NCBI GenBank assembly: GCA_033763455.1
Contig: JANRKO010000019.1
Location: 1 to 64,000, forward strand
DNA length: 64,000 nt
Direction: 5' to 3'
Source: Polyangiaceae bacterium
GTDB lineage: Bacteria; Myxococcota_A; Polyangia; Polyangiales; Polyangiaceae
The notes beneath the pieces are model-generated. The model was given only the letters and a program-made list of their open reading frames with translations, was not told the DNA's origin and did no database searches. The position numbers and the translations under genes were made by a program. Below, piece after piece: positions 53,281 through 62,889 of this stretch (positions are counted from its first letter, which is position 1; each line of letters starts with the position of its first letter).

Positions 53281-55254
53281 CTACGCGCCGCGCAGCGTCA
53301 CCGTGCTGAGCGGGTCAATGCCCAAATCTTCCGAAAGATCGTTGAAGCACACCACGTGGTAATCGGGGTGCTCGGTGGCTAGCAGCTTTCTTACGAAGCG
53401 GCGGATGCTTGGTTGAGTGAAGATGACAGTGGGGCGGCCCTCTGCTGGCGGTGAGGTTTGAATGGTCTTAGCGACGGCCCGCACGATGTCCCTGCCGGTT
53501 GCTGGGGAGAGTGCCAGGAACTGCCCTGCGTTGGTTTTTACAAGAGCATCTTTGATAGCCTGTTCGATGGTGGCATCGAGCAAGTAAACGCCGAGGCGCT
53601 TATGTTCTCCGCTTAGGCGATGCGTGGTGCTGCGTTTTAGGGCACTGCGAGCGAGCTCGGCGAGCTCTGCCGGTGGGCGCTCGTTGCCGGGGGCTTGAGT
53701 GAGGGCGTCTAGAATGGTGCGAAGATCCCGAATGCTCACCTTTTCTTGAACGAGTGAGCGAAGAACCTCAGCCAACACGGGAACATCTGCCGGTTTGGGT
53801 AGCTGACGAGCTCCCGCGGTGCTCACACTCTGAAGTGCGTCCAAAAGCGATTGGGTCTCCGTGATGTTGATGAAATCCCCGGCGCGCTGCTTGAAAATCT
53901 CGACCAACTCCGCCGTTAGCCAGGACGCTAACGTGTCCAGATCTCTAATCTCAGTCGGCAAAGTAGCGCGCTTTAACGGCACTTCGTGGACGGAGAACAG
54001 AACTTCGTCCGGGCCGAGCTCGGGGGCAACCTGCAGCGTGCCGGTCGGGATGGCGACTCCGAGCTCGGAAAATATGAGGGCTCGGGCGGAAGCAACTGCA
54101 CGAGTCAACTCGGAGTTGTTGCTCTCGGTGGGGCGTACTCCGCCGCCAAGATGCAAAATCGGGTCCCGCCCGAAACTCACAGACCATGGCACCACCACCG
54201 GCAAGAACCGCGGCTCGCCGTTTACCCAGTCCACGGGCGCGGTCACCTTCGCACTTGGAGTGCGCAAAAGGGTGCGGCTCCGTGCGCGGGAAGCTGCCAA
54301 AAGTAGCACTCCGATAACCAGGAAAGGCAAAGCCGGAAGCCCTGGAATTGCCGCCAAAAGCAGGATGAGCGCGCCGGCGGCGGCTAGAGCTTTCGGTTGC
54401 CCCAGCAATTGTCCCGCCAGATCGGTCCCGAGCGATGTTTCTCCCTCTTCGCTGGCAACACGCGTCACCAAGATGCCGGCTGCTGTCGTAATAACCAACG
54501 CGGGGATCTGCGCGACCAAGCCATCCCCGATGGTCAGCAACCCGTAGCGCTTCAGGGCCACGAGCGGGTCCAGGTGCTGCTGCCCCACGCCAATGGCAAG
54601 GCCTGCCCCAATGTTCACGAGAGTGATCACGAGCGCCGCGATGGTATCCCCCTTCACGAACTTCATCGCTCCGTCCATCGCTCCGTAAAATTGGCTCTCC
54701 CGTTCGAGTCGCTGGCGGCGGCGCTTCGCTTCCGCGTTATCGATCGCTCCCGAGCGGAGATCGGCATCGATGGCCATTTGTTTTCCCGGCATCGCATCGA
54801 GCGTGAAGCGGGCACCCACTTCAGCGACCCGTTCGCTCCCCTTGGCGATCACCACAAACTGAATGATCGTCAAGATCAGGAAAATTACGGCTCCCACGAC
54901 GTAGTTGCCCCGCACCACAAAGCTGCCAAACGCATGGATCACCTCGCCGGCGTCAGCCTGCAGCAGGATCAGCCGGGTGGAGGAAACGTTGAGGGCCAAG
55001 CGGATCAGCGTGGTAATCAGCAAAACGCTAGGAAAAGCCGCAATCTTGAGTGCGTTGGCGACGTACAAAGATACTAAAAGAATGGCGACGGAAATGCCCA
55101 GGTTGGCCGTGAGCAACAAATCCAAGAGCCACGTGGGCAGCGGCACAATCATGAGCCCCACCACGCTGAGCACCACTGCGCCCAGCACCAGATCTGGAAG
55201 ATGGAGCTTCTTTTGGGGCAGCGGCGGCGAGAGCTTGGCGAGGGAAGGGAGCAT
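53281..55254 (-). CDS. FlhA/SctV-family type III export gate protein
   Basis: RLALNVSSTRLIL, ERVAEVGARFTLDAMPGKQMAIDADL, FYGAMDGAMKFVKGD, IGDGLVAQIP, VSIRDL. Confidence 0.95.
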   Translation of the reverse strand: MLPSLAKLSPPLPQKKLHLPDLVLGAVVLSVVGLMIVPLPTWLLDLLLTANLGISVAILLVSLYVANALKIAAFPSVLLITTLIRLALNVSSTRLILLQADAGEVIHAFGSFVVRGNYVVGAVIFLILTIIQFVVIAKGSERVAEVGARFTLDAMPGKQMAIDADLRSGAIDNAEAKRRRQRLERESQFYGAMDGAMKFVKGDTIAALVITLVNIGAGLAIGVGQQHLDPLVALKRYGLLTIGDGLVAQIPALVITTAAGILVTRVASEEGETSLGTDLAGQLLGQPKALAAAGALILLLAAIPGLPALPFLVIGVLLLAASRARSRTLLRTPSAKVTAPVDWVNGEPRFLPVVVPWSVSFGRDPILHLGGGVRPTESNNSELTRAVASARALIFSELGVAIPTGTLQVAPELGPDEVLFSVHEVPLKRATLPTEIRDLDTLASWLTAELVEIFKQRAGDFINITETQSLLDALQSVSTAGARQLPKPADVPVLAEVLRSLVQEKVSIRDLRTILDALTQAPGNERPPAELAELARSALKRSTTHRLSGEHKRLGVYLLDATIEQAIKDALVKTNAGQFLALSPATGRDIVRAVAKTIQTSPPAEGRPTVIFTQPSIRRFVRKLLATEHPDYHVVCFNDLSEDLGIDPLSTVTLRGA

Positions 55255-58531: not shown

Positions 58532-58703
58532 GTTGCCCCCTCTAGCTCCGCTCAGGCGCGGAGCTCGTCTCCCCCTGGCCAGTCGCTCCGCTCTGGCGGG
58601 GGAAACCCCAGCAAACCGACCAAAAGCGCCCGTGGACGATTTTTACATCTTTGCGTTGTCACTCCGGCACCGAGCGACTATACGGGCAGCCCTCAAGCAA
58701 CAC

Positions 58704-58780
58704 GTCCCCGTCGTCTAGCCGGCCCAGGACACGGCCCTTTCAAGGCTGTAACACGGGTTCAAATCCCGTCGGGGACGCCA
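58704..58780 (+). tRNA. tRNA-Glu(TTC)
   Basis: GTCCCCG acceptor stem, anticodon loop CTTTCAA, GGTTCAAATCC, ends GGGGACGCCA. Confidence 0.95.
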
Positions 58781-58850
58781 GTTTCTTCGAGTCGCAGAAC
58801 CTCTGCACGCTGATTGACCCGGTAATCAGCTTCGTGGATGCTGAAGGGTA

Positions 58851-59342
58851 ATGAGCGACCCCAATCGACGTGCATTTCTGGGCGGCGCGGCCTTATTAGC
58901 CATTCCGGCGCTGGTTGAGAACTGCGGGGAGGGGACGGCTGTTGGCAAGAGCGCGGATGAGCGCGTCGCTGAGCTCATCGCGTTGAGCCGCGACCAGCAC
59001 GGCAAGCCGCACGTGGCGCGGGTGGCATTCCTCACGCCTGAGCGCACCAGCGGGACGCTTCCTGTTTCGGCCGCGGAGGCCGCTGATCTTCGGGCGGTGC
59101 TCGCTTCGGGTGATTTTAAGCTCTTCCAAGAACGGGGCCTACGCTTCGACAACAAGAAGTTCGTGTACATCCGTGAGAGTGAGGAGGGCACCGTGGTGCA
59201 CGCGGTGCGGCGCGGGGAGTTCGTAACGATTCGCAAGGCTCGCAGTGAGCTTGTGGTGGCAACCAGTGTGGACGGGATGGCGCACCCGCGCGCTGTCGAA
59301 GCCGTTTACCAGTACGTGCAACGCTCCGCGGCAATCGCCTGA
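58851..59342 (+). CDS. Profilin-like protein with twin-arginine signal peptide
   Basis: NRRAFLGG plus hydrophobic stretch; EAADL...GLRFDNKKFVYIR...VTIRKARSELVVA...GMAHPRAVEAV follows the profilin pattern; GAAGG RBS. Confidence 0.72.
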   Translation: MSDPNRRAFLGGAALLAIPALVENCGEGTAVGKSADERVAELIALSRDQHGKPHVARVAFLTPERTSGTLPVSAAEAADLRAVLASGDFKLFQERGLRFDNKKFVYIRESEEGTVVHAVRRGEFVTIRKARSELVVATSVDGMAHPRAVEAVYQYVQRSAAIA

Positions 59343-59356
59343 AGTTAGGAATAAGA

Positions 59357-60037
59357 ATGCACAAGCTTCAGCTCACACTGGCCGCACTGCTTTTTTGCGT
59401 ATTCGCCGCTGGCACAGCCAGCGCTGGAAGCTGCGAGCAGGAAGTGGTGGCAGAGTGCGTTGCCAATTCCTGCCCTACCTTTTGCAGGACGCTCGCCGAA
59501 GGCCACGTGGAGGCATGTAAGGTAGGGTGCACGGCACAAGATCGCTGTAAGCTTGCTCTATTTGGCGGCCAAGACCGCCCGGCGCAGGTCGAGCTGGATG
59601 CGCAGAAGCGCGAGCAGCTCATGAGTTGCCTCGCAGAGAACCGCAAGCAACCTGTCGTACCCAAGGAGCTCGGCAAACCGATCCGCACTGAGGCGGATTA
59701 CGTCGCCCCCTCTGAAGCGAAGACGAAAGCCGTCAAGCGCAGCAGCCTTAAGAACACCAAGGCAAGCAAGGCGGCGTGGAAAGCCCGCAAAGCTCGCTCA
59801 TTTGCTGAGCGCAAAGTTGGTTCAAAGCGCAAGGATCCGCTCACCTACGTGCCCCCGGCTGGGCCTGTGAAGTCTCCCCCGAGGCCTCCGCTTCCGAGGT
59901 CAGCACCTCCCGGGCCAATGCCGCCCAAGCCGATGCCACCGAAGCCGATGCCTCCCAAGCCCCGCCCACAGCCAGCGCCGCCGGCGCAAAGCCCGAGCGG
60001 CCAGCAGGCACCGAGTCCGGCGCCCGCGAGCCCCTGA
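59357..60037 (+). CDS. Secreted Cys-rich, basic, proline-rich protein
   Basis: Sec signal (ASA cleavage), 8 Cys, Lys/Arg-rich middle, (PMPPK)x3 Pro-rich tail; AGGA RBS; 14 nt after the profilin-like stop. Confidence 0.8.
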   Translation: MHKLQLTLAALLFCVFAAGTASAGSCEQEVVAECVANSCPTFCRTLAEGHVEACKVGCTAQDRCKLALFGGQDRPAQVELDAQKREQLMSCLAENRKQPVVPKELGKPIRTEADYVAPSEAKTKAVKRSSLKNTKASKAAWKARKARSFAERKVGSKRKDPLTYVPPAGPVKSPPRPPLPRSAPPGPMPPKPMPPKPMPPKPRPQPAPPAQSPSGQQAPSPAPASP

Positions 60038-60076
60038 TTACCCTACGCCTCCCTACGAAGCTGCGGGTAAGTTCGC

Positions 60077-61237
60077 TCAGAAGCACTTGCGGTGCACGAT
60101 CCCCGGGCCTGCCTCGTCGTACTCAGCCTTGGTGATCCACATCTGCTGGAAGGTGCTCAGGCTCGCAAGGATGGAGCCACCGATCCATACCGAATATTTG
60201 CGCTCGGGGGGCGCGATGACTTTGACCTTCATCGTTGGGGGAGCCAGGTTGGTCAATTCCTTTTGCATACGCTCGGCAATCCCAGGGAACATCGTGCTGC
60301 CGCCAGCCAGCACGAGGTTGCTGTATAGATCCGCGCGGATATCGACGTCGCACTTCATGATCGAGTTGTACGTGGTCTCGTGGATCCCCACGGCCTCCAT
60401 GCCCAAAAAGCTGGGTTGGAAGAGCGCTTCGGGGCAACGGAAGCGCTCGTTCCCGATCGTAATAACCTGCCCGTCCGGGAGCTCGTAGCTCTTTTCCAGA
60501 CTGCTTGAACTCGCTGCTGTCTGCATCTCCGCGTCAAAGTCTAGGGCTACGTAGGCGAGCTTCTCCTTGATATCTCGAACGATCTCACGCTCTGCAGTTG
60601 TCGTGAAGGAATAGCCTCGCTCAGTCAGAATCTTCATTAGGTAATCAGTGAGGTCGCGGCCTGCGAGGTCGAGCCGCAGGATCGCGTGGGGTAGGGCGTA
60701 ACCCTCGTAGATGGGCACCGTGTGGGTTATCCCGTCGCCACAGTCGAAAACCAATCCGGTGGTGCGCCCCGAAGCGTAGAGGGCAAGTACGGCCCCCATC
60801 GCCACGTACATGGCGGGCGTATTGAACGTTTCGAACATAATTTGCGTCATCTTCTCACGGTTCGCCTTGGGATTGAGCGGGGGTTCCGTGAGCAACACGG
60901 GGTGTTCTTCTGGCGCCACGCGCAGCTCGTTGTAAAACGCGTGGTGCCAGATCTTCTCCATGTCGTCCCAGTTGGTGACGATGCCGTGTTCGATCGGATA
61001 CTTGAGCGTCAAGATCCCGCGCTTGGCCTGCGCCTCGTCGCCCACGTAAGCGTCTTTCTGGCCCATCCCCACCATCACCCCCTGGTGGCGTGGGCGGCCT
61101 ACGATGCTCGGGAATACCGCCCGCGGCGCGTCGTCGCCAGCGAAGCCGGCCTTAATCATCCCTGAACCGTTGTCGACGACTAGGGCTTGGACTTCGCCCT
61201 CGGTTTGTCCGAGGACTGGGCTGGGAACGAGGGGCAT
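60077..61237 (-). CDS. Eukaryote-type actin
   Basis: [79 protein letters not shown]-terminal IVHRKCF; intronless, 386 aa. Confidence 0.99.
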
Positions 61238-61313
61238 GCCTCACGCTAACAGGAGAGCCTCGACGCGCACAATCGAGAGCACGTGCTGCTAACCGCAATT
61301 CACGGCAAAGTAG

Positions 61314-62720
61314 CTAACCGCTCGCTTCGCATGACCGCTGGATGGCCGAGTAGTGAGCATGTGCGGCGCGCAACATATGCTCATGCTCCGGGCTGAATGT
61401 ATCGATAATATCGAGGGCCCCCACCGGCCCAGCGCGGAACGCCAGCCAATCAGCCAGCATCCCACGCGCGCGCGCCTCGCCCGATACTGACAGCTGGAGT
61501 TCTTCCCTCCACACATCCGCCACTGATGCGATCCCCAAACGATCGAGCTCATCAGCATCGAGCGCATACCAGCGAGCCCGCTTCAGGGCCTCGCTCACAT
61601 CTCCATGAGCCACGGTCACCTCGATCGCGCGCTCAGGATCCGCGAGCAGCCATACCAACTTATCGCGTCGGAGCGGAGCGTCCTTTGGCAGCGGAAAGGC
61701 CAGCTTGGCTCGCTCACCATCCGGTGGCCCAGGCACAACGAACCCAGCGTAGACCCAGCGCTCCGTTGGCGTACGGCGCCCGTAAAACATCCGAACCGCC
61801 TCGCCCGCAGTGTAGTTCATGCCGGCAACTGCACGCAGAGAGTTGCCCTCTAGGAATGTGCTCTCGGCGCCCAGCGTTTCGTCGTGGTCCAGCAGATCCC
61901 AAAGCGGCACCAGGGCGAGCTCATCGGGTACGGCGGTTTGGCGGGACGAAAGGATCGCCCCTGCCCAAAGCCAACGCTGCAGCGTGAACGCCTCGAGCGG
62001 TAGCGGGCGTTTGGCGGGCTCCGTCAGCCGTAAGCGGTGGTGCGCGATGCAATAAAGCTGCAGCACTCCGGCGAGGAAGCTTCTTCCCATGTTTGCAGCC
62101 ACGAGGTGTGAGCCAGGCGAACGCGGCCAGCTGAGCGCCGTTCCGGCCACTTCTCCGGGCAGCGCTGCAACATAAGGTGCCCACGTGTTGGTAGCCTCGT
62201 TTACGTAGCGGGCCCGGAGCAACCAAAGCATCAAATTGCCTGGCCCGAAAAGCGGTGCTTCTTGGAGCCATGGGCCCAATATCGGATCAGCGAAAACGTC
62301 GCCGTTGCGCAACATCGCACTCAACGGCACCTCAACCAACGTGGCGCCCCTGGCGATTGGCGCTGTCGCCTTAACGCTTGCACCCTTGGGTGTTGCGAGC
62401 AAACGCAGCCCGGGCGCGAACCGAACGCCGTGCAAGGCCGCCCACGCGGCCAGTGCATCTAACGCCTGTTGAGATACCGGGAGCGATGGTGGATCCATGG
62501 GTTGGCACTTTTGCACCAACGCCGAAGCTTCGTGCAAATCAGGGAGTTCGAAGCTCTCCGCGTCCCAGGCCACGGCACGCCGAAGCCCGGCGATGCGCGC
62601 GAGCAGATGGGCAAGATCATCGATCGCCGTTTGCGCCTGCGCCTCGGAAGAGGCTTCGTTGGGGGAGTCGGGTTCCAGGTGATCATCTGAGCTAAGGGCG
62701 GGGAGCGGAACAAGTGGCAA
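61314..62720 (-). CDS. SETD3-like SET-domain methyltransferase (Rubisco-LSMT class)
   Basis: KATAPIARGATLVEVP, WAPYVAALP, FTLQRWLWA...SSRQ, LALVPLWDLLDH, GEAVRMFYG, GFV; TTG start uncertain. Confidence 0.8.
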   Translation of the reverse strand: MPLVPLPALSSDDHLEPDSPNEASSEAQAQTAIDDLAHLLARIAGLRRAVAWDAESFELPDLHEASALVQKCQPMDPPSLPVSQQALDALAAWAALHGVRFAPGLRLLATPKGASVKATAPIARGATLVEVPLSAMLRNGDVFADPILGPWLQEAPLFGPGNLMLWLLRARYVNEATNTWAPYVAALPGEVAGTALSWPRSPGSHLVAANMGRSFLAGVLQLYCIAHHRLRLTEPAKRPLPLEAFTLQRWLWAGAILSSRQTAVPDELALVPLWDLLDHDETLGAESTFLEGNSLRAVAGMNYTAGEAVRMFYGRRTPTERWVYAGFVVPGPPDGERAKLAFPLPKDAPLRRDKLVWLLADPERAIEVTVAHGDVSEALKRARWYALDADELDRLGIASVADVWREELQLSVSGEARARGMLADWLAFRAGPVGALDIIDTFSPEHEHMLRAAHAHYSAIQRSCEASG

Positions 62721-62889
62721 ACGAGGGAGCTGTTAAGTAGCAGGAGTGCAAATGTCCTGCGCAGGCATATTTTGAGGGCAAACAACCGTATTTTGACCTG
62801 GTACAGGCTGGTGATGGCACCCTACCATTTGAGTTGGATTTTCCCGCTATTGCGCAGAGTTGAAATCCCAGCCCGGAAATGGTGAACCT

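Follow-up and report, generated by a model that had tools for sequence, protein, structure and literature searches.

Why should a bacterium keep an actin that is close to those of eukaryotes in nearly its whole length and yet lack the glutamine that serves ATP (adenosine triphosphate) hydrolysis? The question is raised by a stretch of 64,000 nucleotides (the window, by which we mean the whole stretch of DNA analysed) from a Polyangiaceae bacterium (assembly GCA_033763455.1, contig JANRKO010000019.1, positions 1 to 64,000 of the forward strand), which carries on its minus strand an intact gene for a eukaryote-type actin with glycine in place of the catalytic Gln137. We consider that this gene was acquired horizontally, has long resided in the myxobacterial chromosome and is functional, and that its product, by analogy with published mutants, would be an assembly-competent actin with a disabled hydrolysis timer and long-lived polymers; to this joint reading we give a probability of roughly 55%. 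The features that bear on it most directly are listed below; subtracting 11 from the query residue gives the standard actin position, and the glycine is query residue 148, or actin 137.

60077..61237, minus strand: intact eukaryote-type actin gene, 386 amino acids, recognised by its open reading frame, the Pfam Actin model, phmmer matches in the PDB and its content of guanine plus cytosine (GC).
60794..60796, minus strand: codon GGG for Gly137 (Gln in eukaryotic actins), from the DNA and the PDB alignment.
60881..60883, minus strand: codon CCC for Pro108 (Ala in eukaryotic actins), in the proline-rich loop governing the His161 flip, from the DNA and the PDB alignment.
60728..60742, minus strand: P2-loop region reading DCGDGI, with Cys155 (TGT, 60740-60742) and Ile159 (ATA, 60728-60730).
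60296..60307, minus strand: adenine-side loop LAGGSTM, with Ala300 and Ser303 and with Gly301/Gly302 retained, from the alignment.
60986..60988, minus strand: codon CAC for the conserved His73, which in eukaryotic actin is the target of methylation by SETD3, from the DNA and the alignment.

The Pfam Actin model covers the whole protein (494.5 bits, profile positions 3-410 of 410), and the best matches found in the PDB with phmmer are the major actin of Dictyostelium and animal cytoplasmic actins (E ~5e-235). Identity over the full length is 88-90% to each of 17 eukaryote-like reference actins, 10 of which lie on short contigs that were judged (not tested) to be eukaryotic contamination, and an 11-residue extension replaces the acidic eukaryotic N-terminus. 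The gene adds to a known class, that of the bacterial eukaryote-type actins (ActM, BARP). The residue changes reported by an initial annotation of this DNA (YVAMGAVLA, TEPPLN, DCGDGI and LAGGSTM, with GGG at 60794-60796) were all confirmed in the DNA and in the alignment with Dictyostelium and beta-actin chains from the PDB, where they appear as Q137G, A108P, S155C, V159I, S300A and T303S. Unchanged residues of the nucleotide site include D11, S14, G15, K18, D154, G156, D157, G158, H161, K213, E214, G301, G302 and K336; the P1 (13-16) and P2 (156-159) loops, Asp11, Lys18, Asp154 and His161 are thereby all conserved save for V159I. Both main substitutions are rare among database actins: of 166 stretches aligned from 119 other such proteins, 165 have Gln at position 137, and position 108 is Ala in 143 and Pro in 3 of 146 aligned stretches. 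Because a change from CAA or CAG to GGG takes two base changes, a single miscalled base is not able to explain the glycine codon.

Set against the 17 eukaryote-like actins, the window actin has 19 residues unseen in any of them, 11 at positions that are invariant there (S60A, T89A, A108P, I136M, Q137G, S141A, I151L, V159I, K291A, S300A and I329V); S300A is absent from the reference rows and T303S is present in one (P0088). Six residue states (A108P, Q137G, M153F, S155C, V159I and K291A) were found in none of the five relatives compared that share the conserved gene module described below. As the nearest of these relatives (L016, 85% identical) retains Gln137, Ala108, Ser155 and Val159, the nucleotide-site changes are lineage-specific. 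The initial annotation had also held that the changes cluster at the nucleotide site, and permutation bore this out (P ~0.002-0.03) under a null that treats all positions as equally mutable, a conservative assumption where a region is normally invariant. Leaving the termini aside, there are 17 novel residues, and seven of them fall within 136-159 (P 0.0016 for a span of 24 residues, 0.007 for 30 and 0.03 for 52, the span sizes having been picked after the data were seen); a site list derived from the literature (P1 loop 13-16, P2 loop 156-159, hinge helix 137-145, proline-rich loop 108-112, D154 and H161) takes in four of the 17 novel residues (P 0.018) and three of the six lineage-specific ones (P 0.004).

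The gene is placed in a bacterial chromosome and appears to have been maintained there. The host genome comprises 6.56 Mb in 92 contigs and is 93.7% complete; the actin lies on a contig of 243,083 bases, among bacterial genes for D-Ala-D-Ala ligase (ddl), a PP2C phosphatase, a FIST protein, ribosomal protein S1 (rpsA), cytidylate kinase, SMC, RecQ, PNPase and sigma-54. Its GC content is 0.596, compared with 0.590 for the window, and it has no introns. Of five sequencing runs listed, four contain part of the stretch (shares of 0.72, 0.23, 0.07 and 0.06), and no RNA run was among those that do. The ratio of nonsynonymous to synonymous substitution rates (dN/dS) is 0.09 against L016, 0.10 against L019 and 0.14 against L048, at synonymous distances (dS) of 1.05-1.37, which points to a long divergence under strong constraint; by this measure the gene is under strong purifying selection. 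The distribution of the actin is patchy: a search with it gave a match in 9 of the 383 genomes in the family and in none of the three other genomes of the genus (94-95% complete). When two congeners (G350:C73 and G351:C37) were compared with window positions 58532-62860, synteny ran through ddl and nothing was shared downstream of ddl, which places the module at a synteny break, in a variable spot just past this gene. The border of the island is anchored on the ddl side only; on the other side it could not be anchored, because homologues elsewhere of the neighbouring PSD-domain protein are just 54% identical.

What the change at position 137 would mean for the protein is suggested by published work. 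In actin, Gln137 and a second water (W2) are the sole contacts of the lytic water (W1), residue 159 touches W2 through its main-chain carbonyl (PMC9618068), and the methyl group of Ala108 drives the flip of His161 on assembly (PMC10062479). Cardiac actin with Q137A forms normal-looking filaments with low ATPase activity and delayed release of inorganic phosphate (Pi) (PMC10062479); the equivalent substitutions in Arp2 and Arp3 abolish hydrolysis with minimal other effects and prolong residence in the network, and that in ParM leaves no ATPase activity and polymerisation kinetics like those of the wild type (PMC3587832). The parts that the initial annotation had assigned to Gln137 and to the 108-109 loop agree with these three sources. 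It had also likened A108P to Arp2 and Arp3, which receive no mention in PMC10062479. By analogy, Gly137 would strip the lytic water of its only protein ligand, and Pro108, Cys155 and Ile159, along with the core changes I136M, I151L and M153F, would remodel the shell around the gamma-phosphate and His161. The actin may then bind ATP and polymerise with hydrolysis switched off or greatly slowed, so that its polymers would stay in the ATP state or that of adenosine diphosphate with Pi (ADP-Pi), turn over slowly and be structural rather than treadmilling; a profilin-like partner is predicted to hold the barbed-end groove, and a SETD3-like enzyme probably acts on His73. A stable, untimed polymer would suit the host cell, because no cofilin, gelsolin or formin was found that could read the nucleotide state: searches for cofilin, gelsolin and FH2, run without a positive control, gave no match in the 93.7% complete genome. 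We infer slow hydrolysis, stable polymers and His73 methylation; the first two had been proposed in the initial annotation as a hydrolysis-slow actin with stable filaments, and this is the best-supported reading, leaning as it does on the Q137A-type mutants.

Loss of the same glutamine recurs among bacterial actins. Of 29 bacterial rows, by which we mean actins on contigs long enough to show a bacterial context, 22 have another residue in place of Gln137, and with four added family members (Thr in L093, Asp in L094, Gln in L092 and L095) it is missing in 24 of 33; the residues standing in for it are G, A, P, N, D, S, T, R and E. This count leaves out contigs shorter than ~3 kb, the intron-split copies L026, L027, L028, L035 and L076, the truncated L023 and the TAG-interrupted copy of G026, and L015 and L022 are classed as eukaryote-like and stand outside it. 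On a maximum-likelihood tree, position 137 is alone among 295 positions invariant in the eukaryotic reference in showing at least seven independent departures within the 16 short-branch bacterial rows (mean 1.46, median 1), and over all 29 rows it has nine changes, a number that 15 positions equal or exceed. Ranked by differing rows, it comes first, tied with positions 8 and 265, with Lys336 next and Asp157 lower. Other repeated departures in the short-branch set occur at Lys336 (6), Asp157 (4), Arg210 (4) and Ala108 (3, often to Pro). We take Lys336 and Asp157 to lie in the nucleotide cleft, and the pattern suggests that the nucleotide site is generally eroded or re-tuned after transfer to bacteria.

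For five rows without Gln137 (the window actin, labelled WIN in the tree, and L019, L018, L032 and L025), the nearest bacterial relative retains it. Cyanobacterial, gammaproteobacterial and other rows form a clade with 100/99 support that is grouped with animal-like rows (99/96), and the myxobacterial module rows fall outside that clade. Since the clades are separate, the Gly137 and Pro108 of L049 (Microcystis) and L051 (Dolichospermum) are convergent with those of the window actin. The initial annotation had asked whether bacterial homologues share Gly137; by descent they do not, as L016 has Gln, but independent losses of Gln137 are many. In the literature searched, outside which the primary description of BARP falls, there was no account of recurrent Gln137 loss, nor of a profilin with a twin-arginine translocation (Tat) signal, a SETD3-like neighbour, a module combining such a profilin with a Cys-rich protein and a SETD3-like enzyme, or the natural removal of Gln137 from a 90%-eukaryotic actin. 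The annotation had further read the changes as adaptation more than decay. The dN/dS of 0.09-0.14 speaks against decay; as to adaptation, the recurrent loss of Gln137 would agree with relaxed selection on a timer that is no longer of use, and also with selection that favours stable polymers.

The actin is accompanied by a conserved set of partners. The module, in which a profilin-like gene and then a Cys-rich gene of secreted type stand beside actin, was found in seven genomes including that of the window, by tblastn on fetched loci. A SETD3-like gene is present in addition at some of these loci. The partner genes in the window are as follows.

58851..59342, plus strand: profilin-like protein, 163 amino acids, with an N-terminal twin-arginine motif NRRAFLGG (Pfam Profilin, 30.4 bits, cut-off 25).
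59357..60037, plus strand: Cys-rich secreted-type protein, 226 amino acids, with a hydrophobic signal-like N-terminus, eight invariant Cys and an invariant W-K.
61314..62720, minus strand: SETD3-like SET-domain protein, 468 amino acids, directly upstream of actin across a 76-nucleotide gap and on the same strand.

Among the module relatives, actin identity to the window copy is 85% in L016 (a metagenome-assembled genome (MAG) of Kofleriaceae, Myxococcota), 82% in L019 (G407), 77% in L048 (G336), 70% in L092 (G205), 67% in L083 (G103) and 60% in L084 (G064), and their contigs include ones of 3.8 Mb and 222,820 bases. Gene order and strands vary among the module genomes; in L019 the three module genes share a strand and are separated by 23 and 32 nucleotides, and the Cys-rich gene adjoins the profilin-like gene in all seven. 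The window actin is nearer to eukaryotic actins (88-90%) than to those of its own module relatives (60-85%), and rates differ widely within one clade; on these identities it is the slowest-evolving and most constrained copy of the group.

The profilin-like gene is the sole profilin match in the genome. Pfam Profilin matches all six aligned copies (window, L016, L019, L048, L083 and L084; best E 1.5e-9), in which the two arginines, the L and the G of the twin-arginine motif are invariant; Pfam TAT_signal (best E 2e-4) and TIGR01409 (8.4e-5) each match four of the six, the window's copy being unmatched at E up to 1. In a modelled complex, the mature profilin-like domain is placed on actin residues 166-174, 284-289, 351-355 and 369-375, which make up the barbed-end groove, with a score of 0.87 compared with 0.02 for the best of three controls. 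That mark is attained by 116 of 157 solved complexes and by 2 of 215 mismatched pairs. At least 92% of contacts are shared between runs, and the predicted local distance difference test (pLDDT) of the partner is at least 88. Because profilin-actin complexes are already solved and the model was built on our own six-row alignments, it speaks for likeness to a known interface and is not proof of binding.

The tail of the Cys-rich protein differs between copies: the relatives have a basic one, and the window copy has one rich in Pro (PPKPMPPKPMPPKP), polyproline being the kind of sequence that profilins bind. The protein matched no Pfam or NCBIfam family and gave no usable match in the ESM Atlas, and its AlphaFold model is helical and of low confidence (mean pLDDT 62.6, predicted template modelling score 0.28). 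Metagenome scans with the profilin-like and SETD3-like alignments yielded no confirmed relative.

Each of the 10 PDB matches of the SETD3-like protein is a SETD3 chain (best E 1.8e-15, residues 90-344), with the PLWD..H and FYG motifs aligned; Pfam SET gave no match at E 0.01. SETD3 is the animal actin-histidine N-methyltransferase, whose target is actin His73. The position aligned to SETD3 Asn255, presumably tied to histidine specificity, is Thr. Orthologues lie beside actin in L016 (8585-9889) and L048 (3745-5952), making three genomes with the window; the L048 orthologue is a fusion with a GNAT acetyltransferase domain (Pfam Acetyltransf_1, E 3.4e-10), and the window copy ends where GNAT would start. 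The enzyme may act on actin His73. As a separate observation, the actin gene (61217-61237, minus strand) and the SETD3-like open reading frame (62700-62720, minus strand, TTG start) share an MPLVP(S/L)P start. Inspection of the upstream DNA by eye showed no obvious duplication, and the motif is absent from the relatives. The shared start is probably due to chance, or else to local copying of a start region.

With the partners in view, the interpretation can be weighed against its competitors. The nucleotide site might be compensated, with ordered waters or Pro108, Cys155 and Ile159 taking the place of Gln137, near-normal hydrolysis and a re-wiring that is neutral or a matter of fine-tuning. 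We regard this as rather improbable, although part of the structural work speaks for it: in crystals of Q137A actin, waters sit almost at the O and N of the Gln side chain and the position of W1 is conserved, and A108G differs between crystal and solution, so that structure predicts rate poorly (PMC10062479). Clustered changes are also what coupled substitutions would give. Measurement, however, goes the other way, as the ATPase of Q137A is low (cited in PMC10062479) and hydrolysis is abolished in the Arp2, Arp3 and ParM equivalents (PMC3587832), and the nine kinds of residue found at this position in bacteria are chemically unrelated, which looks like a requirement that has been lost.

Several points nevertheless count against a disabled timer in a long-lived cytoplasmic polymer. 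Because two waters replace the side chain in the Q137A crystal and the geometry of the site is essentially conserved (PMC10062479), the Gly137 site might be more active than one would expect. Loss of Gln137 is no condition of the module, because four relatives with the same partners (L016, L048, L083 and L092) retain it, and the number of independent losses depends on a reference of 17 rows and on a tree in which many branches are weak. Eukaryotic actin needs the chaperonin CCT for folding; a chaperonin search of the genome found only the GroEL type (three copies) and no CCT or thermosome, which makes it less than certain that a 90%-identical actin folds in such a host. The high score of the modelled complex may stem from solved profilin-actin structures that the predictor had already learned. 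Finally, the partners carry export signals and the actin carries none, which a purely cytoplasmic cytoskeleton leaves unexplained.

This last pairing, of an exported-type profilin with a signal-less actin, raises the idea that the actin leaves the cytoplasm, hitchhiking with the Tat-signal profilin or by another route, and acts in the periplasm, at the cell surface or on eukaryotic prey, for instance by co-polymerising with prey actin as a subunit that does not hydrolyse ATP. We hold this to be unlikely. The export signals of the partners speak for it: the twin-arginine motif is invariant in all six profilin-like proteins, four of which are matched by TAT_signal models, and the Cys-rich protein combines a signal-peptide-like N-terminus with eight invariant Cys. 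The tight, co-stranded arrangement in L019 and the modelled placement of the profilin-like protein on actin (0.87, best control 0.02) agree with it, and retention of 88-90% identity to eukaryotic actins, with relatives at 60-85%, is expected if a fit to eukaryotic actin is needed. An export-gate gene also lies 5 kb away, and two FliP homologues are found on other contigs of the genome (C73 and C74).

53284-55254, minus strand: FHIPEP-family gene (FlhA/SctV-type export gate) by family match, 625 bits, alone among housekeeping genes.

The flanks of this gene, however, stay syntenic in congeners that have no actin, which puts it outside the actin island. The N-terminus of the actin shows no signal-peptide-like feature (type III signals are not recognisable from sequence in this way), we know of no precedent for Tat hitchhiking of actin, and the window's profilin-like copy is not among the four with a TAT_signal match. 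Relatives with the module retain Gln137, and no link of the organism to eukaryotic prey was found. For a poison subunit delivered into eukaryotic cells, the other possibility raised by the initial annotation, there was no direct support, the actin being without a signal peptide. A fuller version, which we consider less likely still, is an extracytoplasmic system in which the Tat-profilin would carry folded ATP-actin across the inner membrane to meet the Sec-exported, polyproline-tailed Cys-rich partner; an actin that does not hydrolyse would stay assembly-competent where there is no ATP, and would form stable periplasmic or surface filaments, or join the polymers of prey actin and jam them. 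If this were true, the need to fit eukaryotic actin would account for the 88-90% eukaryote-like sequence.

We also considered, as quite unlikely, an actin that does not polymerise at all and, like nuclear Arps, serves as a monomer with bound nucleotide in a scaffolding or regulatory role; the loss of catalysis would then reflect that polymer dynamics had ceased to matter. Non-polymerising members of the superfamily commonly lack catalytic residues, and some diverged bacterial copies have lost several residues of the nucleotide site, for example L018 (D11E, D154H and D157G) and L046. Features of the window actin speak against this: only 19 of its residues are unseen in the reference, none of them at actin 38-52, which we take to be the D-loop, and its profilin-contacting C-terminus is retained. 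In addition, the presumed orthologue of ActM shares Gly137, and ActM is reported to polymerise (PMC3254629). It is very improbable that the gene is dead or stems from contamination, from a chimeric assembly or from a miscalled codon, even though many 'prokaryotic' assemblies hold contaminating eukaryotic actin on short contigs, as here bacterial genes flank the actin on either side in a contig of 243,083 bases, the GC content is that of the host, the gene has no introns, its frame is intact, dN/dS is 0.09-0.14, the step from Gln to GGG takes two base changes and the module recurs in seven genomes.

As an observation on public data, contigs of 0.4-2 kb in dozens of bacterial isolate assemblies and in one archaeal isolate assembly encode eukaryotic actin in near-perfect form (L007-L015, L020, L021, L033, L034, L037-L045 and others), and some larger MAG contigs carry the intron-split copies L026, L027, L028, L035 and L076. 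Both groups look like eukaryotic contamination of public prokaryote assemblies.

The actin ATPase is regarded as the clock that separates young from old filaments in eukaryotic cells. Here a near-identical eukaryotic actin is without the clock residue, and the same residue has been lost repeatedly in independent bacterial acquisitions with the rest tightly constrained, a natural experiment suggesting that bacteria keep polymer formation and drop the timer first. Such genes may provide natural actins with slow or no hydrolysis for biochemistry and structural work, some of which may fold without CCT, and the Tat-signal profilin, the secreted Cys-rich protein and the SETD3-like enzyme may show how a bacterium re-uses a eukaryotic cytoskeletal module.

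Among the known systems close to this one is ActM with its profilin PfnM in Microcystis aeruginosa PCC 7806, in which a eukaryote-type actin likewise stands beside a profilin gene in a bacterial chromosome; ActM is reported to be soluble in Escherichia coli and to assemble into short, ribbon-like polymers that phalloidin stains and PfnM decorates (PMC3254629, Guljamow et al. 2012). That paper makes no mention of hydrolysis or residue 137. L049, from Microcystis strain LEGE 91341 and the presumed ActM orthologue, has Gly137 and Pro108 as the window actin does, but the two are 64% identical and L049 belongs to the separate 100/99 clade. The profilin of Microcystis (L049, 6845-7261) begins at position 1 of the profile and has no signal, in contrast to the twin-arginine N-terminus of the window's protein; tblastn found no match in L049 for either the Cys-rich or the SETD3-like protein, and the 78 open reading frames around 13 other bacterial actins, L049 included, gave no SET-domain match. 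A further member of the class, BARP, comes from Haliangium ochraceum (Wu et al. 2009, cited here after PMC3035250); none of the loci compared could be identified with it.

Compared with animal SETD3, the neighbouring enzyme matches only SETD3 chains in the PDB, but has Thr at the equivalent of Asn255 and, in L048, a fused GNAT domain. With the conventional eukaryotic actins (Dictyostelium major, beta and gamma), the window actin has 88-90% identity and a conserved His73 and C-terminus in common; it differs from them in lacking Gln137, in its N-terminal extension, in its bacterial context and codon make-up, and in belonging to a genome in which no CCT was found. The engineered proteins, Q137A actin, Arp2 and Arp3 with Q137A and the ParM equivalent, have had the same residue removed, and in them assembly is kept and hydrolysis slowed or abolished (PMC10062479, PMC3587832). 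Those mutants carry a single change to Ala, whereas the window actin has a natural Gly at this position together with A108P, S155C, V159I, I136M, I151L and M153F.

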